Positions 12,701 to 58,655 of a stretch of DNA of 64,000 bases are shown here, piece by piece; the first letter of the stretch is position 1, and every line of letters begins with the position of its first letter. The position numbers and the translations under genes were made by a program. The stretch is from a virus. Under the pieces are notes generated by a model that saw only the letters and a list, made by a program, of their open reading frames with translations, ran no database searches and was not told the origin of the DNA. The stretch is from the UHGV virus genome UHGV-1550212. The stretch is one strand, 5' to 3'.

Positions 12701-12988
12701 ACCAAGCACAAACCGCTTAAAAGGCTCAAGTAAATATGCAAGTCGTTCTTTTGACAATACACGTTTGCCTGTCTGTTCTTCAAATTGTGATTCGATGCGG
12801 TCAAATTCATTGACCCAGCGCTCATGCATATCAGACAATGAGTGTTCATACAAATTGTCTTTGTCATGATGCAAGTATTTTGACATGCATATGTCAGCAG
12901 CCATTGAATCGCCTGTAAATTCATGCGTCAGTGTAGTGTGCACTTCAGCATATTCAGGCGACCCAATTTGAATGGGATGTTTTGTCAT
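9767..12988 (-). CDS. nrdJ: class II (adenosylcobalamin-type) ribonucleotide reductase with intein and C-terminal zinc ribbon
   Basis: active-site motif STNP/CGEQPL interrupted by intein; C-terminal CPECGG...CVRCTNCGHSAC zinc-ribbon tail; ATG at 12988 (track start 13048 is TTG). Confidence 0.75.
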   Translation of the reverse strand: MTKHPIQIGSPEYAEVHTTLTHEFTGDSMAADICMSKYLHHDKDNLYEHSLSDMHERWVNEFDRIESQFEEQTGKRVLSKERLAYLLEPFKRFVLGGSPMAGIGLGGYTSMSNCYVIGNDADSYGGIFKTDEEQVQLMKRRGGVGHDLSHIRPEDVEVHNSAITTSGVVSFMERFSTSTKEVAQNGRRGALMLSLSIEHPDADKFIDAKKDLTKITGANISIKLTDAFMRAVLAEQQFEHVWRGSNGQELHKTSDAKALFDKIVDNVWASAEPGVFFWDRIMEESNSKAYGKMYEERSTNPCFTGDTKVLVADGSGLKTFKELADSGEDIPVYCLDSNGKLVVRTMRRPRLTAHNAQIIQIVLDDGHVINCTANHEFRLANGDFKNAIDLATNDSLWAIDMPSADKLSIALKTDELVKTERNTVIKQCECCGKEFEVSYDNREQAYCCDACAALGDCSKYADIDTTGDAIVKVVATRHMNKADVYNGTVEDFHNFFIAVNDKQVVNTLNCGEQPLAAYASCILSHRNLTAYVLNPWTADASFDFETFYKDTYDCAVIMDDLVQLEIEAVQRIIAKVRSDKEDFDIKKTELDLWHKVYDKLTNTRRYGMGFLALGDAMAMLGLRYGSQESIDFAVTMQQWLVKATYEASIDLAKIRGSFAIFDYDTDVQSKFIQRMLSELIDDEHIKTYQQFGRRNINTTTIAPTGTTALMTQTTSGIEPVFMPLHKRRRKPTAVDNEADINFIDETTGDKFIEYAVVHYPLMQWICKRVQLGDGKFTLVKDTGIEWSEAEMSRIKAWLSNAPQAVIDELLIQSPYYKATTEDVDWIGKVKLQGALQKYIDSSISVTVNIPNSATKELVREIYLTAWKSGCKGCTIYRDGSRAGVLVKDDKQSKDKSHILQSGHRSKRKPVLPAAVYCVSVYKRKWCILVGCDDGRPYEIFAFELDKDEFDKLQGIEQTTITKTDKKHYKLGDNLSFLQHYDNISERLGSDEQQTITRLYSTMLRNGIDLGEIVDQTAKSFASVGTFCKAIGRALKLHIQDGSKMYAKCPECGGDMVKFDGCVRCTNCGHSACN
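11462..12085 (-). mobile_element. intein (~208 aa) inside nrdJ at the NPC|GE active-site motif
   Basis: begins CFTGDTKVLV (block A), TANHEF (block B), VYNGTVEDFHNFFIAVND (block F), ends ...NTLN followed by Cys+1; Cys-rich CECCGK...CCDAC insert instead of a LAGLIDADG domain. Confidence 0.65.
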
Positions 12989-13030
12989 TGTAACAGTGCA
13001 TTTAAGTGTTTTAACTGTTTTATGTATAAA

Positions 13031-13038
13031 TTGTACAA
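13031..13038 (-). promoter_or_regulatory. TTGTACAA promoter-associated motif upstream of nrdJ
   Basis: about 45 nt upstream of ATG 12988, followed by TTTATACAT. Confidence 0.4.
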
Positions 13039-13058
13039 CAATGGGCAAAATTTTGCAT

Positions 13059-25482: not shown

Positions 25483-26505
25483 TCATTGTTGTTTATGCCA
25501 GCCATATGATGCCTGACCAGCATCATACACTTCTACGAAGCCATGGTCGTACATAAAATCTTCATTACGAGTGCCCTTGCCCCCATTAGTGCCAAGAATA
25601 CGGTCTGCGCCATGCATAAGCAGCATATTATTTGTGACATGTTGCTTTGTCAGCATATTGAACCAGTGTTTGCTATATGACAAGCCAAGACCATCAAAGC
25701 CCAGCTTTGTGTACACACCACCGTCAAACTTGCTTAAATCACAATATGATAACACAGATTCAGGGTCATATGTCTTGATAAAGTGCTTAAAGATTCGTTC
25801 AGCACCACCAACAACTTTGGTTGCTGCACAAAGACGTAGCAATTCATATTGATAGCGCTTATTGTATCGTGGACGACCAAATGTCATAAGTTGATGAATG
25901 ACATAACCACCAAGCAACTCAAGTGGATGACCTTCAATCAACGCAAGATTGATAAAATTGCCTGAGCACTTGCCTTGCAAATGATGTTCAATCAAAAATT
26001 GATTTGCAGTATACTTGTCAATTTCAACAACTTTAAGCTTGCGAGCATATACAATCTTTGATTTGTCTACGATTTGATGCTTGATGTGATTGATAACTTT
26101 CTTGGCGTCATCCCAGTCCCACACATGAATGCAATGAAAGCCTGCTGATTTGGCGATGTCTGTTTTCTTTGCATGAATATCACAAGGCAAATGCGAATCT
26201 TTTGCATCATGCATAAACAGATGTTCAAATGAATGTGTGCTGTTATGTGAAAATGCAGGATTGATGTTAATGACAATATTGTCATGTCGAAAATCGAAGA
26301 CTTCATCGCCAATGACAAAGTTGCGCTCAAAATTTATACCGACATGTTTGAGTAACACTTGATGCCACACATCTTTATAGGCTGATTCAAGCTTGCTTAG
26401 CTCATCACAGTTTGCAATGTTTTTGTAACGTTGAATAGCAGCATCAAAGTCAAGATTGACTTCAGCGTAGTCTGCATTTTTATCGTAGTGAAATTTTGAG
26501 CTCAT
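25483..26505 (-). CDS. Vsr/DUF559-like nuclease-domain protein (paralog family; N-terminal nuclease module, extra C-terminal domain)
   Basis: NIVININPAFSHNS and GFHCIHVWDWDD match the family module; C-terminal GFVEVYDAGQ tail; ATG at 26505. Confidence 0.5.
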   Translation of the reverse strand: MSSKFHYDKNADYAEVNLDFDAAIQRYKNIANCDELSKLESAYKDVWHQVLLKHVGINFERNFVIGDEVFDFRHDNIVININPAFSHNSTHSFEHLFMHDAKDSHLPCDIHAKKTDIAKSAGFHCIHVWDWDDAKKVINHIKHQIVDKSKIVYARKLKVVEIDKYTANQFLIEHHLQGKCSGNFINLALIEGHPLELLGGYVIHQLMTFGRPRYNKRYQYELLRLCAATKVVGGAERIFKHFIKTYDPESVLSYCDLSKFDGGVYTKLGFDGLGLSYSKHWFNMLTKQHVTNNMLLMHGADRILGTNGGKGTRNEDFMYDHGFVEVYDAGQASYGWHKQQ

Positions 26506-26528
26506 GTGTATAATTTTGTATGAGATTA

Positions 26529-26536
26529 TTGTACAA
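26529..26536 (-). promoter_or_regulatory. TTGTACAA promoter-associated motif
   Basis: about 20 nt upstream of ATG 26505. Confidence 0.4.
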
Positions 26537-26612
26537 CATGCAAATGCATGTTGCATTTGATGCAAAGTACTGCGTACACAACATAAAGTACAAGTTTGTC
26601 TTTTGATAGACT

Positions 26613-27674
26613 TTACTTTGTATTGCTACGCGTCATTGTTAAATGACCGCAATCATACACATCAACTTCTGTTTTGCCAAGCATGCATGTATGACAATTT
26701 ATTTTGAAATCTGCTGCAGCGTAATCAGGATAGTTTAGTGGAGATTCTTTTGACAAATCAATTTCAATTGTGTCAGTAGTTTTAAGCTGTTCAGTACCTG
26801 CAATGATATCTGCAATAAGATTGATAACTTCTTCTTGTGAATCCCAATCAAACACAGTTATGCAACGATAGCCTACATCAAGTGCAAGTTTTGTTTTATT
26901 GTAATGGTATTGCGCACCAATAACATTGTTGTCTTTTGCTCGACCAGTTAAATATGCAAAACTAACAGTGCAGTTGTGCGTAACTGTTGGACAAATTTCT
27001 ATAAGTAACTTTGCAGGCTCATACTGCAAATCATATGTTTGATTATTGATGTTAAACTCGTACTGTGTATCAATTGCCAACTGTCGTAATAACGCATCAT
27101 GCCACATCATATTACATTTAGAAATTGTTTTGGATGACAATCTGCATTGAGGCAATTGACATGGCCAATCTACGCCGTACATTTGTTGTGTTGTTTGACG
27201 CATTTTGTTAACATCACCAAAATGATTGCCATATCGATGCTCTTTGGTTTTAAGCGACTGCTCAATATTGACATTGCCTACACAACCATAACGTTCAAGT
27301 TTTGTTGCAGCAGTTTTGCTAACATCACCATGTCCATTACCAAATTTGGCGACTTTAGTTGCAAGTATTTTATGACTTGGGCCAAATGCATTGCCATACA
27401 ATTCTTGTTTAGTCGCAAGCATTTTGTCGATATTACAACCAGCGCCATAAGTGTTATGCATAGTTTGCATACGCTGTCGAATAAATTTTGGCACAGATAA
27501 AGGACTTTCTACACCATATTTGCGTAAGCAACTGATTTTGCATGCGTACTTTTGCTTGATGACAGAATGTGCATTTCGACGTCCTATGTAAGTATTTTCT
27601 GATGTAGCAGCAAGCTCTGCATCTCTAAGAACTTCAAGTGCAGCAATTCGTGCTTCAATTTCTTCAGATGTCAT
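26613..27674 (-). CDS. RYG-repeat / Vsr-DUF559-like nuclease (putative free-standing homing endonuclease)
   Basis: seven ~21-aa tandem repeats each with R/K-Y-G (KYG, TYG, LYG, KFG, RYG, RYG, MYG); C-terminal LLIEICPTVTHNCT...GYRCITVFDWDS...VDVYDCGH. Confidence 0.55.
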   Translation of the reverse strand: MTSEEIEARIAALEVLRDAELAATSENTYIGRRNAHSVIKQKYACKISCLRKYGVESPLSVPKFIRQRMQTMHNTYGAGCNIDKMLATKQELYGNAFGPSHKILATKVAKFGNGHGDVSKTAATKLERYGCVGNVNIEQSLKTKEHRYGNHFGDVNKMRQTTQQMYGVDWPCQLPQCRLSSKTISKCNMMWHDALLRQLAIDTQYEFNINNQTYDLQYEPAKLLIEICPTVTHNCTVSFAYLTGRAKDNNVIGAQYHYNKTKLALDVGYRCITVFDWDSQEEVINLIADIIAGTEQLKTTDTIEIDLSKESPLNYPDYAAADFKINCHTCMLGKTEVDVYDCGHLTMTRSNTK

Positions 27675-29825: not shown

Positions 29826-31217
29826 TCATTTTTCAATCTTTTTGAGCAATGCATGACCACAATCATAGACTTCGACGAAGCCTGACGCAATCATTTGTTG
29901 CCTATCAAACCCATTGTCAAGTAGATGTTCCCATGTCTTTGTATTGTGCCAATGCAATTGAATTGATGATTTATCTGTACTAAGCTGCGGATTTTTTGAA
30001 AAGTCTGCACAGTCAATTTTGTCACCGTTAAGATGCTTACGAATGCATTCAATGACAGTGTCGTGGTCATCCCAGTCCCATATTGTTATGCATACATAGC
30101 CATGTTGTAATGCAATTTGTGTCTTGTCAAAATGACTATCATGTCTCTTTGGCCTATTACGCTTTGTGCGCTTAGTAATATATGCATATGAGTATGTTGA
30201 GTTATGCGAAAATGTTGGATTCACTTCAATCAACAATTTGCAATGTTCATTTTCATAATGCAAGTCATATGAAAAGCCAAGTAGCTTAACATCGTCATAA
30301 CTGCAATCAATGTTAAGCTCTTGTTGCAACTTATCATGCCAAAATTGATTTGGCTTAGATATTATGTTGCCTTGACTGTTTATGCAGTTAGAAGTCATAC
30401 ATGACCATGGCACGCCATAACGCTCAATGTTTGTTTTGTTTGCACTTGCTTGAATTTTTGACAATGGGCCCCATGGATGACCATACTTTGCACGCTTGAC
30501 ATCTGCACCACGTTTAGCAACTTCACGATAATCGCCATAACGCTCTTTTCTTGTAGCAAGCATTTTTGCAATATTGCCCGCGCCACGAGAGCCATATCTA
30601 AGCTCTTTAGTCTTTTGAGCTTTGGCGTAATCACCACAAAATGCATTGCCATATCGAGCAATTTTTGTTGCTTTCATTTTTTCAATGTTGCCTGCACCAG
30701 CATTGCCATAACGTTCAAGTTTTGTTTGCTTGGACAATTCAACATTGCCAAATTTGTTGCCATAACGCACTAATTTTGTTTCTTGTGAACGTTGACGTAT
30801 TTCTTGCACTTGTGCACAGTATTCTACGCCATAGCGTTTTAACATTGTTATTCGTTGATTATATGCACGTTTAATAGGTGCATGCGATGTTCGTTTTGGC
30901 CCATATTTAACAAACTCAGTAGATGCAAGTAATTCATCACGCTCACGTTCAAGTTCTGCAATTCGTTGTTGTATATGGACATCATACACAGGCTGCTCAG
31001 AAATGTCATCAATAGCTGTCGTTTCTAATTTAGCAAGTTTGCGTTTAAGAGCTTTTGTTGTTTGCGTGCAGCTCATTTTTATCAATGCATGTGCATGTCT
31101 GCCACAGTCAAGTACAATGTTAGGCTCATTTGCAAGGCGTTCATCACGTTTACATTCTGCAGCATGTATTGCATCAATAAGTTGTCGTCTCTTTACATTA
31201 TATTCGTCTTGTGTCAT
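29826..31217 (-). CDS. RYG-repeat / Vsr-DUF559-like nuclease (putative homing endonuclease)
   Basis: tandem repeats (KRYG, VRYG, ERYG, ARYG, LRYG, ERYG, AKYG, ERYG); C-terminal FSYDLHY...LLIEVNPTFSHNS...GYVCITIWDWDD...FVEVYDCGH. Confidence 0.55.
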   Translation of the reverse strand: MTQDEYNVKRRQLIDAIHAAECKRDERLANEPNIVLDCGRHAHALIKMSCTQTTKALKRKLAKLETTAIDDISEQPVYDVHIQQRIAELERERDELLASTEFVKYGPKRTSHAPIKRAYNQRITMLKRYGVEYCAQVQEIRQRSQETKLVRYGNKFGNVELSKQTKLERYGNAGAGNIEKMKATKIARYGNAFCGDYAKAQKTKELRYGSRGAGNIAKMLATRKERYGDYREVAKRGADVKRAKYGHPWGPLSKIQASANKTNIERYGVPWSCMTSNCINSQGNIISKPNQFWHDKLQQELNIDCSYDDVKLLGFSYDLHYENEHCKLLIEVNPTFSHNSTYSYAYITKRTKRNRPKRHDSHFDKTQIALQHGYVCITIWDWDDHDTVIECIRKHLNGDKIDCADFSKNPQLSTDKSSIQLHWHNTKTWEHLLDNGFDRQQMIASGFVEVYDCGHALLKKIEK

Positions 31218-42981: not shown

Positions 42982-44220
42982 CTATACACGTCTTGTCAAT
43001 TTGACATGACCGCAGTCATCTGCAAGCAGTTTAACATGACCGCAGTCATCTGCAAGCAGTTTAACATGACCGCAGTCATAAACTTTGACGAAGCCTGCAT
43101 CAATCATAGTTTGCTCATCATGATTGCAGTCAAGCACATGTGTATGAGTTTTCATATTGTACCAATGCAAGCCGATGTAAAAGTCAGTCTTGTGATATGC
43201 GTCAGTATATAATCGTGGGTCATCTATAGACAAATCAAGTTCGACGCAGTCAGCAGTCTGCAGTTGTTCTGTGTCAGTTAGCAATGATTTGACAAGCTTG
43301 ACTACAGCATCAAATGACATCCAATCAAATACAGTGATGCATCTATAGCCATGTTGCATAGCTGTGCAACATTTGTCAAAATGCGTAGTTGATGCAATTG
43401 GCTTGTTGACTGTAGAACGACCAGTAGCAAAATCAAATGCAAATGTGCTGTTATGCGTAAATGACGGATTGACATCAATTAGCAAATTGTCATATCGCAA
43501 ATCAAATGCGTAGCAATCTACGTCATGTTCATATTCAAAATCAACACCAGTATGCTCAAGTAGCATATCATGTAACAAGACGTTTGGCTTTGTAATGATT
43601 TTGCCATTTGCAAGTCTGCACTTCTGAGTTAAACAATGCCAAGGCACGCCATATCGTTCAAGTGTAGTGTTGCTAATCTTCTGCAAATTGCCAAAACCGC
43701 TGCCATAGCGTAATTGCTTTGTGACTGTTTGCTGTGCAACATTACCATTAGCATGACCAAACTTGTTGATGTTTGTTTGCTTGCGCTTAGCATTTGCAGT
43801 TGCAATATCAACAGATTCAAGTGACTCAAGAAATTTTGACATGTCGCCAAGCCCATTGCCATATAGTTGACGTTTAGTGTCAACAACTTTTGTCATGTTC
43901 CAGTGCTTGTAGCCATATCGAGCTTCTTTTGTCGCAAATGCTTTGTCATAGTTGCCAAAGCCTGCATGACCATATCGTTCAACTTTTGTTGCAGCAATTT
44001 TGTCTGAGACTTCTTTAAGCTGATGTTTGTATTCAACGCCAAACTTGCGCAAATTTGATATGCGAATGTTGAACACTCGTTTGACTTTTGTATGCGTAGA
44101 GCCTTTGTCAAGCTTTGCATATGGAATTTGTGCAAGTGCAGCGTCTCTTTCATCTTCAAGCTCTCTTATTCGAGCTTCAAGTGCATCACCAGCCAAAACT
44201 TCTATGCGTATAGTCTGCAT
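42982..44220 (-). CDS. RYG-repeat / Vsr-DUF559-like nuclease with C-terminal tandem decapeptide repeat
   Basis: N-terminal ALEARIRELEDERD coiled coil, RYG repeats, LLIDVNPSFTHNS...GYRCITVFDW...FVKVYDCGH; C-terminus DCGHVKLLAD repeated three times. Confidence 0.55.
   Translation of the reverse strand: MQTIRIEVLAGDALEARIRELEDERDAALAQIPYAKLDKGSTHTKVKRVFNIRISNLRKFGVEYKHQLKEVSDKIAATKVERYGHAGFGNYDKAFATKEARYGYKHWNMTKVVDTKRQLYGNGLGDMSKFLESLESVDIATANAKRKQTNINKFGHANGNVAQQTVTKQLRYGSGFGNLQKISNTTLERYGVPWHCLTQKCRLANGKIITKPNVLLHDMLLEHTGVDFEYEHDVDCYAFDLRYDNLLIDVNPSFTHNSTFAFDFATGRSTVNKPIASTTHFDKCCTAMQHGYRCITVFDWMSFDAVVKLVKSLLTDTEQLQTADCVELDLSIDDPRLYTDAYHKTDFYIGLHWYNMKTHTHVLDCNHDEQTMIDAGFVKVYDCGHVKLLADDCGHVKLLADDCGHVKLTRRV
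43001..43080 (-). repeat. 30-bp tandem direct repeat (about 2.7 copies) at the 3' end of the nuclease gene
   Basis: ttaacatgaccgcagtcatctgcaagcagt repeated. Confidence 0.85.
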
Positions 44221-45187: not shown

Positions 45188-45637
45188 TCATTTGAAGAAT
45201 CGTTCTGTAATGATTTTGAACTTGATATTTTGTTGTTTGCAGTATGCAATGGTGGCATTCCACTTCGCAACATTTTTGCGATATGTTTCTTTCGCATAAT
45301 TTGATGCTGACCGACTTGGACATTGTGTTTCATGCCACGGTTTCACTTCAACGATATATGTAGAATCTGCAGTTTTGAACAAAAAGTCAGGCCAATATGT
45401 ATGAGTTACGCCATCAAGCTCATATACAATTGGCAGAGTCTCAGATGACCAAGCAAGCACTTTTGAACTCATGTCACAAAGCTTGCAAAATCTGAATTCA
45501 AGTGAACTGCGGTATATGATTGTCTTGTCTGTCGCATCTTTGCCTTTGTACTTATCTGGGTTCATACATCTGTAGTAGCCTTGCTTATACGGTCCAGATT
45601 TGTTTGGCTTAAGTTGCTTAATGTTCATTGCAGTCAC
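45188..45637 (-). CDS. hypothetical protein with PD-(D/E)XK-like motif
   Basis: WPDFLF...YIVEVKP suggests a D...E-x-K nuclease core; weak. Confidence 0.35.
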   Translation of the reverse strand: MTAMNIKQLKPNKSGPYKQGYYRCMNPDKYKGKDATDKTIIYRSSLEFRFCKLCDMSSKVLAWSSETLPIVYELDGVTHTYWPDFLFKTADSTYIVEVKPWHETQCPSRSASNYAKETYRKNVAKWNATIAYCKQQNIKFKIITERFFK

Positions 45638-47781: not shown

Positions 47782-48405
47782 TTATGCATTGGCAATTTCA
47801 GATGGCATTCTGAACTTGATGTCATTATACACAAATGTCAATGTGAATGTCATCACGTTCTGGTCTACACGAGTTTTGTCATATGTGAGTTCTGAAATTG
47901 CAGAAAACACGACATCAATGAAGTCGATGCCAAACAATGGTTTCTTTGCACCGCCATATGTCGCTACAAATCTGCAGGGCTGAAAGTAGATAGTTTCGCG
48001 TTTATCGTTAGCGTATCTGAACAAACTCTCTAAGCAACAAAAATAGCTTAAACCACCATTCGTCAATCTGCATGTCACCTGGATTCGCTTATCAAGTGCT
48101 TGATGAATTGTCTTGCTGCCCTTATGAAACTGTGTAATTGACTTCTTCATGCCACTGTCATCAAGAACTTTATTGACATTCTGAGTAACAATTGGCATCG
48201 ATATGCCCATCAATGACACAGACTGAATTGAATCATGCAACAAGTCATTGATGTCATAAATGATTTGTGTTGGTTGTTGCACAAACACTTTATTGTAAGT
48301 ATCAGCAATATCTTGCGGAATCAAATCAATTGGCAAGTCAAAGCGAAACTGGTCTGACCGTGTATCGAGAATGAGCATATTTTTGATAATTTGTTTATGT
48401 ACCAT
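47782..48405 (-). CDS. hypothetical protein (207 aa)
   Basis: ORF track. Confidence 0.45.
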   Translation of the reverse strand: MVHKQIIKNMLILDTRSDQFRFDLPIDLIPQDIADTYNKVFVQQPTQIIYDINDLLHDSIQSVSLMGISMPIVTQNVNKVLDDSGMKKSITQFHKGSKTIHQALDKRIQVTCRLTNGGLSYFCCLESLFRYANDKRETIYFQPCRFVATYGGAKKPLFGIDFIDVVFSAISELTYDKTRVDQNVMTFTLTFVYNDIKFRMPSEIANA

Positions 48406-49604
48406 TAACTGTCATACGACCAGTGACCACAGTCATACACTGGCACAAATCCAGTGTCAAGCATTTCTTGCTCAATAAAGCCATCATCAAGCAAATGTTC
48501 ACCTGACTTCGTATTGACCCAATGCTTCTTAATTGTGCATTCATCAACCACAAAGGGATTAAGTGCATTGTCAGTGCAATCAATGAACACATTATTCAAA
48601 TGCGCGTCAATGACATGCAGCACAATTTCTGGGTTGTGCCAATCAAATATCATAAGTGGCGTGTAGCCACATACAATTGCAAGTTGTTGCTTCCACCAAT
48701 GATAGTTTGGCTGTTTTGCTTCTGCGGCATTTCGTTTAAAGCCATACACGCTATTATGAGTATGCGTCGGGTTAACGTCAATTAGCAGATTGCCATAATA
48801 CAGGTCATATGATGTTATGCCAACATCATGTTCAAACTCAAAATGCACACCAAGATGTTCTTCAATGTATGATTGCCACCATCTGTTTGGCGCAGATATG
48901 ATTTGCCCATTTGCTTGCATACATTTATTTGTCATGCAAAACCATGGCACACCGTAACGTTCCATACAGGTTTTTGAAATTGCAGCAAGCCATTCATCTT
49001 TGTCTCTATGCGGCCATGCATAACCATAACGCAGACGACATGTTTGTTGAGCTTTAGCAACGATTGGCGCTAAACGTTCACCGTATATTTCACGTTTAGT
49101 TGCGATGGCTTTGCGTGGATTAGTCCATCCAGCATCACCCCATCGCTCAAGCTTCGTTTGCTGAGATTTTTCAACAATCAGTTCAAGATTCTCACCATAT
49201 TTTTGACGACGAGTTTGCATTGCTGCAACATAATCTGTAATGCATCTATGGCCATACAAACGTTCTTTTGTCGCACTATGTGCTTTATCGCCATATGAAC
49301 TGCCGTAGCGTGCAACTTTAGTGGCAATTGTTTGCTTGATGTTGCCTGCTTTAGAACCATAACGAGCTTCTTTAGTTGCTACGCATTTTTGTTTGACTTC
49401 TGCTCTGTTCCAATTATGCTCAACGCCATGTTTACGAAGATGGCCAATTTTCATGTTGTACACGTTTTTGATATGACCATGAGATGTCTTACGTGGTGCA
49501 TATCGTACAAATGGTGTTTCTGCAAGCAACTTATCTCGTTCAGCTTCAAGCTCTTTAATTCGAGCTTCAAGAGCTTCACCAGTCAAATGCTCTACATGTT
49601 TCAT
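48405..49604 (-). CDS. RYG-repeat / Vsr-DUF559-like nuclease (putative homing endonuclease)
   Basis: N-terminal ALEARIKELEAERD, tandem RYG repeats, LLIDVNPTHTHNS...GYTPLMIFDWHN...FVPVYDCGH. Confidence 0.55.
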   Translation of the reverse strand: MKHVEHLTGEALEARIKELEAERDKLLAETPFVRYAPRKTSHGHIKNVYNMKIGHLRKHGVEHNWNRAEVKQKCVATKEARYGSKAGNIKQTIATKVARYGSSYGDKAHSATKERLYGHRCITDYVAAMQTRRQKYGENLELIVEKSQQTKLERWGDAGWTNPRKAIATKREIYGERLAPIVAKAQQTCRLRYGYAWPHRDKDEWLAAISKTCMERYGVPWFCMTNKCMQANGQIISAPNRWWQSYIEEHLGVHFEFEHDVGITSYDLYYGNLLIDVNPTHTHNSVYGFKRNAAEAKQPNYHWWKQQLAIVCGYTPLMIFDWHNPEIVLHVIDAHLNNVFIDCTDNALNPFVVDECTIKKHWVNTKSGEHLLDDGFIEQEMLDTGFVPVYDCGHWSYDS

Positions 49605-50089
49605 TCGTGTTTGCCAGTTTGAAATAACGAATCAATTGGGATGTGAATACCAGGTTTGGATTGAATGTTCCATCCGCGCGCCAAACCATTAAGTACGCAG
49701 CTCGTAAGGTAAGAAAACGCGTTTTGAGTTACTGTTGGGTCAAACATTTGCCACTTTGACGCCAAAATTAACATGGCTTCTGCTGCGACATCTGCTTGTA
49801 AGTCTTTGTCCCTGTAGTATAAACGTCTCTGCACATGTTTGATAAGCAACTCAAACATGTGTATAAGTTTATTTGACAGCTGTCCAGATACTTTGCATGC
49901 GCATATTTCTGCACAAAGTTCTTTGCTGTTGATGTAATAGTTTGATGGCTGACCTCGCTTCTTTGTGTTTGCAGCTTCTTCACGAAGTTGGTCTTCAAGT
50001 TGTGTCAACATGTCATCATCTGACACGTATTGAATATGCTTGTCTTCTGGTAGTTTAGATTCTATTGGTTGTAAGTTTTGCAGTGGCAT
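49601..50089 (-). CDS. late transcription sigma factor (T4 gp55-like), putative
   Basis: YYINSKELCAEI...AMLILASKWQ...NAFSYLTSCVLNGLARGW parallels gp55 conserved regions; ATG at 50089 downstream of TTGTACAA motif at 50119. Confidence 0.5.
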   Translation of the reverse strand: MPLQNLQPIESKLPEDKHIQYVSDDDMLTQLEDQLREEAANTKKRGQPSNYYINSKELCAEICACKVSGQLSNKLIHMFELLIKHVQRRLYYRDKDLQADVAAEAMLILASKWQMFDPTVTQNAFSYLTSCVLNGLARGWNIQSKPGIHIPIDSLFQTGKHE

Positions 50090-50153
50090 AGCAGTGAGCA
50101 TTAAAATTCCTATATAAATTGTACAACGCTTTGTGCACATTTGCAATCATAAA

Positions 50154-51502: not shown

Positions 51503-52993
51503 TTATGCCTTTTTAGATTTGCGCTTTGCGGCAACTACGACTTCTGCTACGATAGCTTCTACAGTAGCTTCAGTTACAACAGACTTGTCTGCAACTTTTA
51601 CAAGAGCTGCATGCAACTTGTAGTTGCCGACTTTGCTGAAAGTGCACTTGAATTCTGTTGTTGCGTTGTATTCTGCAGGTACTGCAAAACCACTGTCAGG
51701 ACCCCATACACCAGTGTCTTCAAATGTCCAAGACTGTCCTTGTGAATCTGTTGCAGCGAATGTCACATGACCATCTTCAGGTGCTTCTACAATTTCATAT
51801 TGCAGCTGAACGCCATCAACACCTGCTTTACCAACGACTTCAGTTGCAAGTGTTGCATTGATTGCAACTTCTGTTGTAGGCTGAATACTTGCAGGGACAT
51901 CTACAGAAATCTTGTATTCTGACACTTCAGGCTGAACTGGCTCAGCAACAACTACTGTAGACTCTGCTTCAACAACTACACTGTCATCAGCAACCTTGGC
52001 AAGAACTGCATGCAACTTGTATGCGCCTGCCTTGCTAAAGATTACAGTGAACTTTGTAGTTGCATTGTATTCTGCTGGAATGTCAAAGCCTACTGCAGGA
52101 CCCCAAGTTCCATTATCGACGAATGTGTATTCATTGCCAGTTGTGTCAGTAGCCTTGAATGTCACATGACCATCTTCAGGTGCTACGTCCACGCCATAAC
52201 GGAACTGAACTTTGTCAACGCCGACGTCGCCAACAGTCTTCGTTTTGAATGTTGCATCAAGCTCAACTTCAGTGTTTTCGATTATTGTTTCAGGTGCAGA
52301 CATTTCGAACTCGTACTCAGACACTGTTTGTGCAGCTTGTTCAAGTTTGATGTTCTTTGTCTTGTTTGAACTCATAGTCTCACGACCAGCATGGCTAATG
52401 TAGCCCTCTTTAGACACTTCCCATACAATTTCTTCGCCTGACAAAACAGTCAACGAATTGCGAACTTCGCCATTCATCTTGATAACTGCATCTGCAGGTT
52501 CTACATTAATTGTCAGTGTAGCTTTGCTAAGCTTAACAAGCTCCACTACTTGAATGACATCATGATTTGTGAGCGTGATTGTGCCCTCCTGAGATTCATA
52601 GCCCTCTTTCGACACTTCCCACTTAATTGGAATGCCTGCGGGCACATTCTCAAGCATCTTTGTAGCCTCACCATTGATTTCTACATGAGCATCTTCAGGC
52701 ACTGGCTGAATTGTGATGCTGAACTTGTCTTTACCAGGTTCAGGGTCTGGTCCGGGTCCTGGGTCATCACCAGTAATTGCAGGGATGATAGTGTTTTCGA
52801 TGACTTTCTGAGCTTCTGCAGTTGTGCCATAGAATTTGAGAGTTTTCTTGGCTTCTTCTACAGACATCTTCTCAAGATTATCTGCAAGATATGTCAGACC
52901 AGTGACTGCAGCAATTTTCTGCCGCATTTCTGGGCTAATGACTACACCAGTAGATTTGACTACTGGAGCAGCTTGTTTTTGTTTCTTTGCCAT
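51503..52993 (-). CDS. surface/decoration-type protein with PEGA-like and Ig-like domain duplications
   Basis: two ~60-aa PEGA-like repeats (...NGE...WEVSKEGY) and two ~100-aa repeats (APEDGHVTF.ATD...WGP..GF..PAEYNATT.F...SK.G.YKLHA); GPGPDPEPG linker; Lys-rich C-terminus; ATG at 52993. Confidence 0.5.
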   Translation of the reverse strand: MAKKQKQAAPVVKSTGVVISPEMRQKIAAVTGLTYLADNLEKMSVEEAKKTLKFYGTTAEAQKVIENTIIPAITGDDPGPGPDPEPGKDKFSITIQPVPEDAHVEINGEATKMLENVPAGIPIKWEVSKEGYESQEGTITLTNHDVIQVVELVKLSKATLTINVEPADAVIKMNGEVRNSLTVLSGEEIVWEVSKEGYISHAGRETMSSNKTKNIKLEQAAQTVSEYEFEMSAPETIIENTEVELDATFKTKTVGDVGVDKVQFRYGVDVAPEDGHVTFKATDTTGNEYTFVDNGTWGPAVGFDIPAEYNATTKFTVIFSKAGAYKLHAVLAKVADDSVVVEAESTVVVAEPVQPEVSEYKISVDVPASIQPTTEVAINATLATEVVGKAGVDGVQLQYEIVEAPEDGHVTFAATDSQGQSWTFEDTGVWGPDSGFAVPAEYNATTEFKCTFSKVGNYKLHAALVKVADKSVVTEATVEAIVAEVVVAAKRKSKKA

Positions 52994-53137
52994 AAGATAT
53001 TGTGAATTTGGTTGTTTATTCTTAACAAAATATGTACATACAGATGCAACAGATGATATGTCAGATACACAAAGCTGCATAAAATGACCAGACTTGCAAA
53101 TAAATTTAAGCAAGTCTGGTCATCAGTTTTGATTGCA

Positions 53138-54430
53138 CTACAACAATGACGGCACTCGTTGAGTTTCAAGTGGGTCGCTGACATTGATGCCTGTGTATGC
53201 AACAAGTCGTTGTATTGGGCCAAGTACGAGTTTTTCGAACATGAGTCGTTTGTTCATTGGCGGCACATCTGGCATATACTTCGGTGTCGGCATTTCGCCT
53301 GGTGCAAAGCCAAATGCATCGCAATATTGACGAGAGCCAATTGGTATATTTGACAAATCTGACTTTGCTCTGTCAACAAAGTAGTAGAACACTCGACCGC
53401 CTTCAATCAATGGGTATCGTGTTTCCAATCCATGTGCTTTGACAAGACAGTTATGCCAACAACATGCTCTATATTGAGGCAGTACACCTTTTGCTAACTG
53501 CCATTCACCATCATAGCTTAGCACATAGTCATGATACTTGTTTGCATTGACATATGCACAAAGTTTCTCCAAGTCTTGCTCGGCTTCAAAGCGTTTCCAT
53601 AATTTCTGTATGAGCTTTGGATATGTCGCAGAAGTTAATTCGCCTCTGAACATTTTCTTGAATGCATAATCAAGCATTTGTCTAACAAGCATTGACGAGC
53701 CTGTTTGAATAAGTTCGATGCCTTTGCCTTGAATGTGCTCAGTAGGGTCTTCGAATACTCGACCATCTACATATATTTGAGCCTTTAAGTACTTTTTCTT
53801 TTGGGCAAATAATGCAGTGTCAGAAATCGTTTCGAGGTCAAATAGCAAAATTGAATTGCCGTGGCGTTTTGCGAGGTCTGCTGCATATGCACCATTGAAT
53901 AACTCTTCCATACGATATTTGAATATCGCAAGAATCAAGTCATACCAATTTTTGCCTATGTAGCCAATTGATTTGACAGTTGGCTCAAAGTGAATGTACA
54001 AAGAGTCTGTATCAATGTACAACACTTTGTCTTCATAAGGCTCTTGCTTTGGCGACACAGACAAATCAAAATTGCCCTTCAATTGTGGGTCATTACGCAG
54101 CTTTTCATGCAATTCATAATCACACCACCACTTATTGTTGAGATAGTCATTTGCTACTCGTTCACCAAAGTGAATGAAGTTGCGGCCTTCAGCAGTAATT
54201 GATTCTGCAACTGCCATATTAAAGAAGTGATAGAAACGATTGCTTGTAGCGCCATATATTGAGTTTCGACAACATTTTGCTGAGACTTGCAGTCCTGCAT
54301 GCTTTAGTGATTCTTGCATTGCAAAATCTCTCAATTCAAATAGACGTTCAGTAGACAACTGGCTTAAATCACCAGTCAAATCTACTCCATCTATTTCAAT
54401 TTTTGACATATCTATCTGAGCTTCTGCCAT
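53138..54430 (-). CDS. family-B DNA polymerase, C-terminal (polymerase motifs B and C) fragment
   Basis: motif B KCCRNSIYGATS (KxxxNSxYG), motif C YIDTDSLYI (YxDTDS). Confidence 0.8.
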   Translation of the reverse strand: MAEAQIDMSKIEIDGVDLTGDLSQLSTERLFELRDFAMQESLKHAGLQVSAKCCRNSIYGATSNRFYHFFNMAVAESITAEGRNFIHFGERVANDYLNNKWWCDYELHEKLRNDPQLKGNFDLSVSPKQEPYEDKVLYIDTDSLYIHFEPTVKSIGYIGKNWYDLILAIFKYRMEELFNGAYAADLAKRHGNSILLFDLETISDTALFAQKKKYLKAQIYVDGRVFEDPTEHIQGKGIELIQTGSSMLVRQMLDYAFKKMFRGELTSATYPKLIQKLWKRFEAEQDLEKLCAYVNANKYHDYVLSYDGEWQLAKGVLPQYRACCWHNCLVKAHGLETRYPLIEGGRVFYYFVDRAKSDLSNIPIGSRQYCDAFGFAPGEMPTPKYMPDVPPMNKRLMFEKLVLGPIQRLVAYTGINVSDPLETQRVPSLL

Positions 54431-54571
54431 AAGTTGTTTATTTTTGATTAAATTGTACTACACATGTTGCAATTTTTGCAATACACATGTTAAACCAAAA
54501 TGCAGCAGCAGATGTTCTGCTGCTGCATCGGCAGGTATCTTCACAATTGTTTGAGTTGATTGCAATGCGAT

Positions 54572-55399
54572 TTAGAATGGCAGGTCGCCATCATCACCTA
54601 CAGCATCAAAATCAGCAGCAATGTCATATACCAACGTCATTGCGATTCGCAAATCACGTTTCTTAGATTTCAGACGCATGATGTCATGACCTGAATTGTT
54701 TGTGATGACTGAGCATTCAAACTCTTCATTGCCGTCGATGAATGACAGCATTGATTTGTGAATTGTGATTGGCGACAAATCTGACGGATATGACGAATCA
54801 ATCACATATTCAAAGTTGTTGTTCTTGGCAATTAGGCCTCGTTCAGTTGTGCGAATCTCAATGCCGGGCAGTTCCTTGTCACCTGTATTCAATGAGCCAT
54901 ACGATGACATGATGCCAAAGTGATTTGACGTCAAATCGAGCTTTCTCAGATTTGTTGTGCTATCAAACAGCATTGACATATCATTGTCAGACAGCTCAAA
55001 GTAGCCAAGTGATGGCATTGAACAAACCTGATTGATTTTGAGCTGATTGTTTGAGATTACAATGAGCTCTGCAATTGTATCTGTACCAATTTGTTTGACA
55101 TAGATTTCAATCATTGCATATGAGCCAAATGCAGCAAGTACTCGATTGTTGAATTGCGTGCCATTGTAAATAAGCGCCTTGACTGTGACATCTTTGAGTG
55201 TAGACTCATAATGTTCGCAAATGTCAAGCACATTAAGTGTCTGCGACTTTACAAAGCTACTATTGCCAGCATCAGTTCTGATTCGCTGGTCATTGAGTGA
55301 AAAGCTAAGCTTGCCATCGCATTTTAATGATGATGCAAACAATGCTCGCAGCATATCAATGTTTGCATTGCGTAACGTAATTTTGTTCAGATTTTCCAT
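54572..55399 (-). CDS. hypothetical protein with SSB-like acidic C-terminal tip
   Basis: C-terminus DFDAVGDDGDLPF resembles the bacterial SSB DDDIPF tip; no clear OB-fold recognised. Confidence 0.35.
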   Translation of the reverse strand: MENLNKITLRNANIDMLRALFASSLKCDGKLSFSLNDQRIRTDAGNSSFVKSQTLNVLDICEHYESTLKDVTVKALIYNGTQFNNRVLAAFGSYAMIEIYVKQIGTDTIAELIVISNNQLKINQVCSMPSLGYFELSDNDMSMLFDSTTNLRKLDLTSNHFGIMSSYGSLNTGDKELPGIEIRTTERGLIAKNNNFEYVIDSSYPSDLSPITIHKSMLSFIDGNEEFECSVITNNSGHDIMRLKSKKRDLRIAMTLVYDIAADFDAVGDDGDLPF

Positions 55400-56358: not shown

Positions 56359-56709
56359 TTAGTACATTTCTCGTTTAACAAGAGCTTTGCGTTTTGAGCG
56401 TAGCCCTGCCCTATTACGTAATTCTACTGACCAATCACGAATCATTTGCCATGCAATCCCACCACGTTGAATACCACCGTGCTTGAACATTTCATTGCAA
56501 ATACCTTGAATAAACACCGCATCAGACTTTGTCAATGCGTCAACAATTTGACCATGGTTGTCTTCTGTCTTGACATCATTGCAAAGCTTAAGCTCATCTA
56601 CTGAAAGTTCGCCAAGCAGCTCATAGTAGTATATGAGAGCTTTGCGTGCGGCAATTGCTTTTCTTGAATTGCCAGAATAAGACAAAGTCACATGTTTGCT
56701 CATATTCAA
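56359..56709 (-). CDS. hypothetical protein (116 aa)
   Basis: ORF track. Confidence 0.4.
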   Translation of the reverse strand: MNMSKHVTLSYSGNSRKAIAARKALIYYYELLGELSVDELKLCNDVKTEDNHGQIVDALTKSDAVFIQGICNEMFKHGGIQRGGIAWQMIRDWSVELRNRAGLRSKRKALVKREMY

Positions 56710-56723
56710 TTATTGTTATGGTG

Positions 56724-58229
56724 TTACAATTTGATTGCGCCTCTACGAGCAAGCTCTTCTTCAATCAATCGAACATGATTGTTAGCATACCAAAATTGCA
56801 ATTTTTTGTGATAATTGCGAACGTTGCCAAGCTGTTCTTGAGTTTCTTTATACATTGAAGGCTCTCTGTTGTCATACAGACAATTGTTGACTGACACAAA
56901 GTAATTTGGGTCTGCTTTGTAATGCTCAATTTCATCAGGATTTGTTAAACGTCTAATAAAGTTGTCTGGTGAAATATTCGCCGAGCGCATACTTGACGGA
57001 TACAATGAGTTTGCGTCAACACAGACAACCATACGAGCCCAATGGTTAAATGGTTGCTTAACAAAGCCGCCCTCAAATGAATGTACTACATTCTCTGGGC
57101 CACCTTGAGCACATACAACTTTGCCGCCATATTTGTTGTATAAGTATGTCATCATGACGCCCTCAGATTGCTTAACTGGTCCTTGGCAGTGATTCATGTC
57201 AATATTTGTCATATTTGACAATGACATCACATTTGATATCAAGTCAGTTTTTGCAGCAATCATTGCATTGACCATAGTATCGACAGCATTGTATGCAATG
57301 AATGTGCATGGATGATACAAATACAGCTCTTTAAGTGTGCAATCATAGGGCAACTTACCTACGCCGAACATACGATGTGCAATGTAGTCAAGTCGCAATG
57401 ATTCCTTTTGCCACACTGAATAGTCGTATGTGTCCATGAGCTGCATGTAGTCATCAATGTACTTGTGATATGGCATACCATTGCCCCAGACAGTTCTGCC
57501 AACTGGAGATGCCAATGCTAAATCAATATTGTGCATTGCGCATCGATTTTTGACATAGATGTTATCGAAGTCATTGATGTTCCAGCCTGTCAATGCAGGA
57601 ATGTTTTTGAAGAGCTTAGTCACCCAAAAATGCAACAATTCATGCTCATTTGCATGTTGAAAAATTTTGACAGTTGGATGTTCTTTCAAATACGCAGCAA
57701 AGCAATGTTGACCCATATACTCTTGAATGATGCCATTGACAAACTCAAATGCATCATCCAATGTTGGGTTTTGTTTGCCGCAGCTTTTGCGCAAATCATC
57801 ATCATTCAACAAGTCAACAGTAGTCTGAATGACACAATTGCATTGTTCATCGCATGTACTTATTGCATTAATGGGCATTTCAGCTTTGTCAGGCTTTGGA
57901 AAGCCATTGCCAATTTCAGTCTCAATATCGTAAAAGTACAACTTTGGTCTACGATAAGCAAACAATTCAGCTTTGTCAGCTTCAGGCAATTCAAATAAGA
58001 ATTGCAGCAAGTCAAATTGATTGAATCGTTTTGCTGTGACTCGAGTCACTGGCAATTTACGCCAATCTTGAATATCTGCATATTGAGGCTCTACGTGGTC
58101 TGATATTTGCCACACTGGAAATTGATATGGCTGTTCACAGACTGGGTATGTTTTGATGTCAATGCCACCTTGCTCATTAACATATGAGACTTCAATGCCA
58201 TGTGACAAATATGCTACGTCAACAATCAT
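56724..58229 (-). CDS. family-B DNA polymerase, N-terminal (3'-5' exonuclease + motif A) fragment
   Basis: Exo I YFYDIETEIG, Exo II LTGWNINDFDNIY, polymerase motif A VDANSLYPSSM; ends with stop after motif A. Confidence 0.8.
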   Translation of the reverse strand: MIVDVAYLSHGIEVSYVNEQGGIDIKTYPVCEQPYQFPVWQISDHVEPQYADIQDWRKLPVTRVTAKRFNQFDLLQFLFELPEADKAELFAYRRPKLYFYDIETEIGNGFPKPDKAEMPINAISTCDEQCNCVIQTTVDLLNDDDLRKSCGKQNPTLDDAFEFVNGIIQEYMGQHCFAAYLKEHPTVKIFQHANEHELLHFWVTKLFKNIPALTGWNINDFDNIYVKNRCAMHNIDLALASPVGRTVWGNGMPYHKYIDDYMQLMDTYDYSVWQKESLRLDYIAHRMFGVGKLPYDCTLKELYLYHPCTFIAYNAVDTMVNAMIAAKTDLISNVMSLSNMTNIDMNHCQGPVKQSEGVMMTYLYNKYGGKVVCAQGGPENVVHSFEGGFVKQPFNHWARMVVCVDANSLYPSSMRSANISPDNFIRRLTNPDEIEHYKADPNYFVSVNNCLYDNREPSMYKETQEQLGNVRNYHKKLQFWYANNHVRLIEEELARRGAIKL

Positions 58230-58244
58230 ATATCATTATCTTTT

Positions 58245-58655
58245 TTAGAATAGAGATATTGTACAACAATTTGATTCAGGTTGCCATTCTACAATATGCG
58301 CATCAAAGTGTTTGTTAAGCCAATGTGCAAGTATGTGTCTATGACAAAATGCAGATAGTCTGCACCAACATAACAATACAATGTCTCGTTCGCCTGCAAG
58401 AATCTTTATGCGATGCAGCATCAAACTTATCTGTGACAATGCAGCGTCAAGTTTTGCTGCATATTGCTCTGCATATTGTGCATTGTCAAGCAAGCCTGCT
58501 TTATGCAAACGAACAAGTGACATGTAATCAGGCATGACGTCAGTCCATGTAAAATCTGCTATGAAGCCCTTAGGCTTTGTTGCAGACACTTGAACAAGAA
58601 ATGCGTTATCAGGCAGATGCCTGCATGCATAATATGAAGTTAAGATTCTTGTCAT
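58245..58655 (-). CDS. hypothetical protein (136 aa)
   Basis: ORF track. Confidence 0.4.
   Translation of the reverse strand: MTRILTSYYACRHLPDNAFLVQVSATKPKGFIADFTWTDVMPDYMSLVRLHKAGLLDNAQYAEQYAAKLDAALSQISLMLHRIKILAGERDIVLLCWCRLSAFCHRHILAHWLNKHFDAHIVEWQPESNCCTISLF

Follow-up and report, generated by a model that had tools for sequence, protein, structure and literature searches.

A predicted sliding clamp with an SSB-like C-terminal tip, encoded inside the split family-B DNA polymerase of a T4-related phage

The stretch of viral DNA described here, UHGV virus genome UHGV-1550212, is 64,000 nucleotides long and is called the window below. On its minus strand, at 54572..55399, it encodes a protein of 275 amino acid residues (aa) situated inside a family-B DNA polymerase that is split into an N-half and a C-half. 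Judging from its predicted fold, this protein is very probably the DNA sliding clamp of the phage. It has an acidic C-terminal tail, ending in a tip that resembles the C-terminal tip of bacterial single-stranded DNA-binding protein (abbreviated SSB, and its tip SSB-Ct). The gene and the segments of its product are arranged as follows.

54572..55399, minus strand: the clamp gene, complete with stop codon (open reading frame, ORF, and translation; 275 aa)
55016..55399, minus strand: predicted clamp domain 1, residues 1-128, two beta-alpha-beta-beta-beta units (predicted local distance difference test score, pLDDT, 86-98)
54626..55015, minus strand: predicted clamp domain 2, residues 129-258, a second beta-alpha-beta-beta-beta pair (pLDDT 85-96 with the deep alignment)
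54596..54625, minus strand: flexible acidic linker, residues 259-268, DIAADFDAVG, with an invariant F264 (pLDDT ~65)
54575..54595, minus strand: SSB-Ct-like tip, residues 269-275, DDGDLPF, in which D..DLPF is invariant down to 43% identity

The reading frame extends from an ATG at 55399 to a stop codon at 54572-54574 and is the single long ORF of the interval, the plus-strand frame being riddled with stops. The product ends ...LVYDIAADFDAVGDDGDLPF; at another length, its C-terminus reads ...ADFDAVGDDGDLPF. The initial annotation of this DNA, which gave no strand, had described a 275-aa protein with an SSB-like acidic tip located between polymerase halves. The ORF and its translation bear out the protein and its tip, on the minus strand, and the location is confirmed by the family-B N-half and C-half that flank the gene. 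From the local composition, about 4e-5 ORFs of the window would be expected to end in [DE][ILV]PF after an acidic run. The clamp gene and its orthologues are the only ones with such an ending in a set of 1907 ORFs taken from all six frames of the window and the related loci. The likeness of the tip to that of SSB is far beyond chance.

The structure of the protein was predicted with AlphaFold2 from an alignment of 53 sequences (mean pLDDT 92.8, predicted template-modelling score 0.87), only the last ~15 residues being low in confidence. The model has two domains, each a duplicated beta-alpha-beta-beta-beta unit, with four helices and the strand order expected of a DNA clamp. Domain 1 consists of the elements E5-13, H14-25, E31-35, E39-45 and E49-56, followed by E63-66, E73-77, H80-91, E94-104, E107-116 and E121-125 (E, strand; H, helix); domain 2 consists of H138-145, E152-154, H158-168 and E179-201, followed by E211-214, H215-218 and E227-255. 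A Foldseek comparison of this model with the PDB gave 516 matches at E<=1e-3, the best at E=2.4e-10. The 50 best of the 516 are all beta clamps or PCNAs, aligned over their full length; template-modelling scores were 0.60-0.65 with PCNA, and the structural alignments with these clamps have a sequence identity of 9-12%. A model built from a shallow alignment was confident for residues 1-128 only. Its significant PDB fold matches were sliding clamps, with 9-1-1 subunits among the fold matches. In BFVD its best viral matches were uncharacterised ~270-300-aa proteins encoded by the Tenacibaculum phages PTm1 and pT24; viral PCNAs and DnaN-like clamps made up most of those ranked next.

The clamp fold spans residues 1-258, and there is no oligonucleotide/oligosaccharide-binding (OB) fold of the kind that forms the core in single-stranded DNA-binding proteins. 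The predicted fold and the presence of clamps only among the 50 best matches thus indicate a two-domain protomer of the PCNA/gp45 type and not an OB-fold SSB. Structure prediction had been suggested in the initial annotation as the way to tell an OB fold from a clamp fold, and its outcome, a clamp fold, agrees with the proposal made there of a clamp-like replication accessory factor. By analogy with other two-domain clamps, the protomer should form a trimeric ring. Weak matches of residues ~127-164 to Pfam LRR_6 and to leucine-rich-repeat entries in the PDB disappeared with a deeper profile and contradict the model, and were treated as spurious.

The amino acid sequence shows no significant match to Pfam or the PHROGs, and a tblastn search of 50,697 phage records gave no match. 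A word-indexed protein database yielded only ten homologues, the most distant at 43% identity. When 1.84 billion representatives were scanned exhaustively with a profile, 57 relatives emerged, most of them full length and 247-296 aa long; a word-indexed profile search added only three further family members. No stretch was conserved enough for a family-wide degenerate-pattern search for loci. The Pfam clamp and SSB models match none of the 53 aligned members, and neither these nor the window protein belong to the T4 gp45 family by the profiles PF02916 and PF09116, on which T4 gp45 itself, used as a positive control, scores 1.6e-51 and 8.8e-34. PHROG and NCBIfam models matched none of the members tested, NCBIfam being uninformative on this question as even T4 gp45 lacks a model there. 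Alignment of the family profile with T4 gp45 by hhalign gave a probability of 2%, a phmmer search with gp45 found nothing, and T4 gp32 does not match the window protein. By these searches the predicted sliding-clamp family is a deep sequence orphan, missed by Pfam, PHROGs, NCBIfam and the GenBank annotations.

Similarity of the polymerase groups the phage with jumbo myoviruses that infect Bacteroidota. The closest is Chryseobacterium phage MA9V-1 (36% identity), followed by Tenacibaculum phages PTm1 and PTm5 and Sphingomonas phage PAU. The polymerases of MA9V-1 and PTm5 are also split, and a "hypothetical protein" of 291 and 279 aa, respectively, is encoded between the halves. Both proteins are homologues of the window protein (hhalign probability 99.9-100%, E=1e-35 and 4e-41). 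The complete genome of MA9V-1 has an annotated clamp loader, MA9V1_237 (T4 gp44 by phmmer, 3e-22; Pfam AAA and DNA_pol3_delta2), no annotated clamp and no match to gp45, and exactly one copy of the present family, MA9V1_137, between the polymerase halves. The family therefore appears to supply the clamp that this loader needs. A conserved gene of ~350 aa in the MA9V-1 and PTm5 splits was considered as a clamp loader. The idea was rejected, since the gene is not AAA+ and is either DUF7487-like or without a significant family match, and the real loader, MA9V1_237, lies elsewhere. An attempt to find the host phylum through a KpsF/GutQ-like auxiliary gene was uninformative, giving ~30% identity to scattered taxa only. 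According to Iyer et al. 2021 (PMC7824862), an RFC-like loader and a clamp of the PCNA superfamily are typical of group-2 jumbo phages, PTm1 among them. From this general statement the existence of a clamp is expected.

The polymerase halves, the other features of the split and one gene outside it that bears on the clamp are listed below.

56724..58229, minus strand: family-B DNA polymerase N-half, 501 aa, with the 3'-5' exonuclease and motif A (Pfam DNA_pol_B_exo1)
56359..56709, minus strand: 116-aa ORF in the split, without Pfam or PHROG match; a 114-aa gene has the equivalent position in L005
55844..56335, minus strand: dUTPase in the split (Pfam dUTPase, 7e-11), as also in the splits of L004, L005 and L014
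55468..55842, minus strand: MazG-like NTP pyrophosphohydrolase in the split (Pfam MazG, 8e-9; phrog_229, 1e-35)
54499..54529, minus strand: terminator-like hairpin (14-bp stem, T-run), 43 nucleotides after the clamp stop codon
54452..54481, minus strand: promoter-like site, TTGCAA-18-TACAAT, ahead of the polymerase C-half (consensus match only)
53138..54430, minus strand: family-B DNA polymerase C-half, 430 aa, with motifs B and C and the thumb (Pfam DNA_pol_B, phrog_1918, phrog_262)
49601..50146, minus strand: gp55-like late sigma factor (phrog_234, late sigma transcription factor, 2.5e-7), with C-terminus ...IPIDSLFQTGKHE

The N-half matches positions 40-97 of DNA_pol_B, phrog_2062 and positions 111-489 of phrog_262, with DANSLYPS as motif A. 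The C-half matches positions 153-353 of the DNA_pol_B profile and positions 504-842 of phrog_262, with KCCRNSIYG as motif B and YIDTDS as motif C. Four genes lie between the halves: the 116-aa ORF, the dUTPase, the MazG-like pyrophosphatase and the clamp. The same division between motif A and motif B is found in the window and in the related loci designated L001, L002, L004, L005, L014 and L016-L018. The cargo of the split differs among the relatives and includes dUTPase, MazG, ribonucleotide reductase subunits, histone-like Hc1, DUF7487-like genes and, in PTm5, an intein-containing fragment. The adjacency of the clamp and C-half genes is constant while this cargo changes. The clamp gene is located just before the C-half, or one gene before it, in the window, MA9V-1 and every metagenomic locus retrieved (L004, L005 and L013-L018), and just after the N-half in PTm5; the clamps of the syntenic relatives are 19-44% identical to that of the window. 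The order in L004 is dUTPase, two small ORFs, clamp and C-half. In L014 it is N-half, small ORF, dUTPase, ORF, clamp and C-half, and in the marine loci L017 and L018 it is N-half, ribonucleotide reductase, Hc1, clamp and C-half, the last two genes overlapping. L013, L015 and L016 have the same clamp and C-half adjacency as the other loci. In the window the two genes are 141 nucleotides apart (54431..54571), the gap containing the 14-bp hairpin. A near-identical relative, L005 (97% identical), has a 382-aa DUF7487-like gene in this gap (L005:2331-3479), which thus looks like an insertion site for mobile genes.

The C-halves of the polymerases have short, hydrophobic C-termini (RVPSLL, LLPALI, QMMMEL, LPSFKNMFKKK and VYSATLF). 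That of the window ends ...ETQRVPSLL, a candidate clamp-binding peptide. T4 gp43 ends ...SLDFLFG, its clamp-binding peptide being at the equivalent position, and by this analogy the terminal peptides of the C-halves would bind the clamp. The DSLF in the C-terminus of the late sigma factor resembles the clamp-binding peptides of the T4 late-transcription proteins, such as gp33, which ends ...TLDFLL. This resemblance suggests clamp-activated late transcription as in T4, and the factor may be a second client of the clamp.

The tail leaves the clamp body at the end of the last beta-strand. It has a pLDDT of 55-65, with a short helix of intermediate confidence at residues 261-264 (ADFD). F264 and the D-x-D-L-P-F of the tip are invariant across homologues down to 43% identity, and the extreme C-terminus has the form D-D-D-[IL]-P-F or close to it (DDGDLPF, and DDDDLPF in variants). 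Among ten near-identical variants, five of the ten linker sites (259-268) vary, compared with 25 of the 258 sites of the body (Fisher p=0.002). F264 never varies, and the tip shows a single substitution, G271D, by which it becomes DDDDLPF. The linker before the tip, of only ~10 residues, is hypervariable among these variants and is much shorter than the linkers of SSBs. A drifting linker followed by a fixed tip is the pattern of bacterial SSB tails.

When the family is aligned at the end of the last beta-strand, it separates into ~35 "long" members with a tail and ~18 "short" members (~250 aa) without one. The tails of the long members are strongly acidic, being 15-33 residues in length and containing 4-13 D/E and 0-3 K/R. 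Most have one to five aromatic residues in a recurring [FW]-x-[DEN]-[FW] motif (IDFDDFDNL, SDFADF, SEFNW, NEFEDF). The DLPF ending is restricted to the subclade of the window protein, being present in this protein, a homologue of 76% identity and one of 43% identity, whose ends are ADFDAVGDDGDLPF, NFDDADSDDLPF and NFDDESDDDDLPF.

The interaction motif of E. coli SSB is MDFDDDIPF (PMC11436948, PMC5531588), and the DFD upstream of the tip in the window protein parallels it. In E. coli SSB, an extra residue beyond the terminal Phe abolishes the function of SSB-Ct (PMC11436948). The tip of Firmicutes SSBs is DISDDDLPF, that of S. aureus SsbA being DDDLPF (PMC5531588). The Bacteroidota SSBs of Flavobacterium psychrophilum and Psychroflexus torquis end in DLPF and those of gamma-proteobacteria in DIPF (PMC3991886, Table 1). 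The tip of the window protein therefore equals an SSB ending of the Flavobacteriia, the class to which the hosts of the closest relatives in culture belong. Mimicry of the SSB tip by the tail is a reasonable inference from these sequences, and the binding partner of the tail would, by analogy, be a protein with a pocket for SSB-Ct. In the literature searched, no sliding clamp with a tip of the SSB type came to light. To our knowledge, no PCNA, DnaN or other such clamp has an SSB-Ct-type tip.

The MA9V-1 genome encodes a gp32-type SSB, MA9V1_045 (L006:44078-45067; PF08804, 39.8 bits), with a C-terminus rich in A, Q and P. Its last 50 residues contain four D/E and no aromatic residues, compared with 15 and three, respectively, in T4 gp32. 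As this SSB lacks an acidic-aromatic C-terminus, the clamp may carry the acidic recruitment tail in this clade; the comparison hints that the tail is on the clamp rather than on the SSB. At its start MA9V1_045 has instead a stretch, MSTDLFNSVFDFDAS, that is acidic and aromatic and looks like clamp-binding or tail motifs; the interaction peptide may have been relocated.

A mechanism can be proposed in which the two-domain protomer, of the PCNA/gp45 type, assembles into a trimeric ring that is loaded at primer-template junctions by a gp44-like clamp loader encoded outside the window. The ring would hold the two-subunit split family-B polymerase on the DNA through the hydrophobic C-terminal peptide of the C-half. 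The flexible acidic tail of ~19 residues that follows the last beta-strand and ends ...DF...DDxDLPF, copying the bacterial SSB tip, would be a tethered recruitment peptide, so that three SSB-type tips would be exposed by each ring once it is loaded at a primer-template junction. Proteins with an SSB-Ct pocket would be concentrated at the clamp; candidates are SSB-interacting enzymes of the host, for example RecQ, PriA, RNase HI, ExoI or Ung, and proteins of the phage replisome that have a similar pocket. The clamp possibly serves late transcription in addition to replication. Taken as a whole, the statement that the protein is a replicative clamp whose tail acts in trans as a tethered partner-recruiting ligand mimicking SSB-Ct is given an even chance of being correct. 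In a more far-reaching form, which is put forward tentatively and seems doubtful, the clamp acquired the host SSB recruitment peptide and the ring became a surrogate SSB hub that, at the primer-template junctions of the phage, hijacks or titrates those host enzymes with which SSB interacts (RecQ, PriA, RNase HI, ExoI, Ung and others). Under this proposal the tail moved from SSB to the clamp in the clade, a step suggested by the lack of an acidic tail in MA9V-1's SSB of the gp32 type.

Several observations weigh against these proposals. There is no sequence-level link from the window protein to any known clamp family in Pfam, the PHROGs, NCBIfam or the hhalign comparison with gp45, and the identification therefore rests on predicted structure and context. 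Neither a clamp loader nor an SSB was found within the 64-kb window. A query with the MA9V-1 loader matched 80 other contigs and one with its SSB gave no match, in a search that did not reach the phage's own contig; both genes must be located in another part of the genome, which is 175 kb long or longer. DLPF occurs in one small subclade only, the [FW]-x-x-[FW] motifs of the other tailed members are unlike SSB-Ct, and ~18 members have no tail, so that SSB partners are not necessarily part of the tail's general function. A covariation of tail presence with features of the polymerase C-half was sought and not found. The host SSB tip used in the comparison is an extrapolation from the hosts of relatives, which may not include the host of this phage.

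The tail might instead act in cis, folding onto the partner pocket or the basic central channel of its own clamp as a pseudo-ligand or DNA mimic that gates clients or aids ring opening. In a comparable way, the acidic tail of E. coli SSB, of T7 gp2.5 and of T4 gp32 folds back onto the DNA-binding surface of the protein itself. The family-wide motif [ISN]-[DE]-F-x-[DEN]-F resembles the T4 clamp-binding sequences LDFLF (gp43) and LDFLL (gp33), the short helix in the tail is predicted in place of full disorder, and the tail exits from the last beta-strand, which in PCNA-type clamps is on the partner-binding face. However, a pseudo-ligand should co-vary with the cognate polymerase peptide, and the pairs RVPSLL/DLPF in the window, LPSFKNMF/SWDDFETD in PTm5 and QMMMEL/EFAAF in MA9V-1 do not co-vary. 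The convergence of one subclade on the exact SSB ending would also be left unexplained, and action in cis is considered rather unlikely. About equally unlikely is that the tail binds the phage's own polymerase or primase-helicase as a second, reciprocal tether, perhaps joining the polymerase subunits, its likeness to SSB-Ct being convergence on a generic acidic-aromatic ligand. Such a tether would not require the exact DLPF ending, which counts against it. In its favour, most tailed members are acidic-aromatic without an SSB-like tip, the clamp gene is linked tightly and anciently to the split polymerase genes, and acidic-aromatic tails recur in phage replisomes: the acidic Phe-terminated tails of T7 gp2.5 and gp4 bind T7 DNA polymerase, and T4 gp32 has the tail DDLDAFNVDDFNTKTEDDF. 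Two more specific connections of the tail with the polymerase were tried and rejected. Tail-less clamps also sit in split polymerases, so that the tail is not needed for the split, and the extra C-half residues of the tailed lineages are acidic or neutral and offer no basic patch on which the tail could dock.

The remaining explanations are far less probable. A clamp fold need not imply a replicative ring, and the protein could instead act, as a monomer or in a heteromer, as a factor for processivity or of a checkpoint-like kind, resembling UL42 or 9-1-1, or be a clamp devoted to the activation of late transcription. The lack of a sequence relation to gp45, the 9-1-1 subunits among the fold matches and the nearby gp55-like late sigma gene, together with the activation of late transcription by gp45 recorded in the T4 annotation, are consistent with this. 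However, the family is the only clamp-fold candidate in the complete genome of a relative that encodes a gp44-like loader (MA9V-1), its linkage to polymerase genes is universal, and a role in late transcription would add to a replicative role, as in T4, and not replace it; a non-replicative factor is thus quite improbable. That the protein is a true SSB, homologous or analogous, with a normal C-terminal tip, was another suggestion of the initial annotation and is now scarcely credible. The tip is the one feature in its favour. The model is a two-domain clamp whose 50 best fold matches are all clamps, there is no OB fold and no match to the SSB or gp32 models of Pfam or the PHROGs or to T4 gp32, and MA9V-1, the closest cultured relative, encodes a separate gp32-type SSB. 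Just as little credence is given to the LPF ending being a degradation tag through which a host protease such as ClpXP would set the level of the clamp. According to PMC5143411, the C-terminal LPF of Streptococcus mutans SsbA is sufficient for degradation by ClpXP, and the recognition is described there as strain-dependent and absent in other bacteria. A degron would leave unexplained the conserved acidic run, F264 and the acidic-aromatic tails elsewhere in the family.

The assignment of the window protein as a sliding clamp gives a function to a widespread family of "hypothetical proteins" in jumbo T4-related phages, namely the Shirahamavirus phages PTm1 and PTm5, MA9V-1 and many marine and metagenomic phages, and it accounts for the orphan clamp loader of MA9V-1. 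A gene that is constantly tied to the split family-B polymerase would be the polymerase's own processivity factor, providing a landmark for annotation and for reconstitution of the two-subunit holoenzyme. Clamps are normally receptors for partner peptides, and SSB tails are normally ligands for partner pockets. If its tip is functional, the clamp described here would be both receptor and ligand, which would be a new wiring of the replisome. That phages redirect the host SSB interactome is a hypothesis testable with the tail peptide AADFDAVGDDGDLPF. As an annotation the result is solid; mimicry of SSB is an attractive idea, as yet unproven.

The T4-type core genes of the window are those for the gp55-like late sigma factor, portal, major capsid protein, prohead protease, DNA end protector, a topoisomerase II subunit and ribonucleotide reductase. 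The large subunit of the last (1093 aa; 9767..13048, minus strand) has an intein-splicing domain match at residues 338-517. Directly upstream of the polymerase N-half is a DUF488-N3a protein ("active DUF488-N3 subclade"; 58245..58655, minus strand). Immediately downstream of the C-half is a 536-aa protein (51503..53113, minus strand) with two Head_fiber_dimeric domains and a PEGA domain, in keeping with the description of head-fibre appendages in the Tenacibaculum phages PTm1 and PTm5. A 149-aa ORF (45188..45637, minus strand) has a clear TnsA-like endonuclease N-terminal domain (Pfam, 9.8e-18), unusual for a lytic T4-type phage. DUF7487 genes are found at 48405..49604 and 26613..27674, and homing- or HNH-endonuclease-like PHROG matches at 42982..44220, 29826..31217 and 25483..26565. 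Endonuclease-like or DUF7487 genes that are paralogous or related, at least five in number, are thus dispersed among the core genes, and the PTm5 split holds a DUF7487 gene as well, which suggests that mobile endonuclease genes have heavily colonised the genome. A recurrent intergenic motif, TTGCAAAA-N4-CAACA, was considered as a phage promoter and rejected as not significant (four matches compared with 1.3 expected).

Among known systems, the predicted clamp is most readily compared with gp45 of T4 and RB69, which is also a phage-encoded two-domain protomer of ~230-290 aa with the DNA-clamp fold. The resemblance extends to the gp44-like AAA+ loader of the relatives, the T4-type family-B polymerase with a short hydrophobic end and the gp55-like late sigma factor. 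In contrast to these likenesses, there is no detectable sequence similarity to T4 gp45, as the negative Pfam result and the hhalign comparison show, and the gene is placed within a polymerase split and not beside the loader genes. The 19-residue acidic tail with its SSB-like tip also differs from the end of gp45, which has only a short ...EADSTHDF. T4 gp45 (L011:7918-8604) ends ...ALEADSTHDF, a short acidic stretch with a terminal Phe, and an acidic Phe-terminated C-terminus may be an older and more general property of clamps than the present family. Archaeal and eukaryotic PCNAs and DnaN are the best full-length structural matches; PCNA shares the two-domain architecture, whereas DnaN has three domains per protomer.

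The tail is like that of bacterial SSB in its D-D-x-D-L-P-F end, its acidic stretch, the upstream D-F-D and the hypervariable flexible linker. It differs in being attached to a clamp fold and not to an OB fold, in having a linker of ~10 residues compared with 30-110 in SSBs, and in having four to five extra residues between DFD and the tip. The A-domain of T4 gp32 and the ends of T7 gp2.5 and gp4 are likewise acidic, aromatic, flexible C-terminal peptides that act as replisome tethers, and the DFDDF, EFNW and DFADF motifs of the family resemble the DAFNVDDF...EDDF of T4 gp32. Those tails, however, are on SSBs or a helicase-primase and not on a clamp. The division of the polymerase into N-half and C-half in the window, MA9V-1 and PTm5 is the same as in the split family-B polymerases already recognised in T4-related and jumbo phages (PHROGs 2062 and 1918; "split DNA polymerase" of PTm1 and PTm5), with the difference that a previously unannotated gene tied to the split is now identified as a probable clamp. 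The annotations and libraries queried contain neither the identity of this clamp, nor its constant place within the split, nor its tail.

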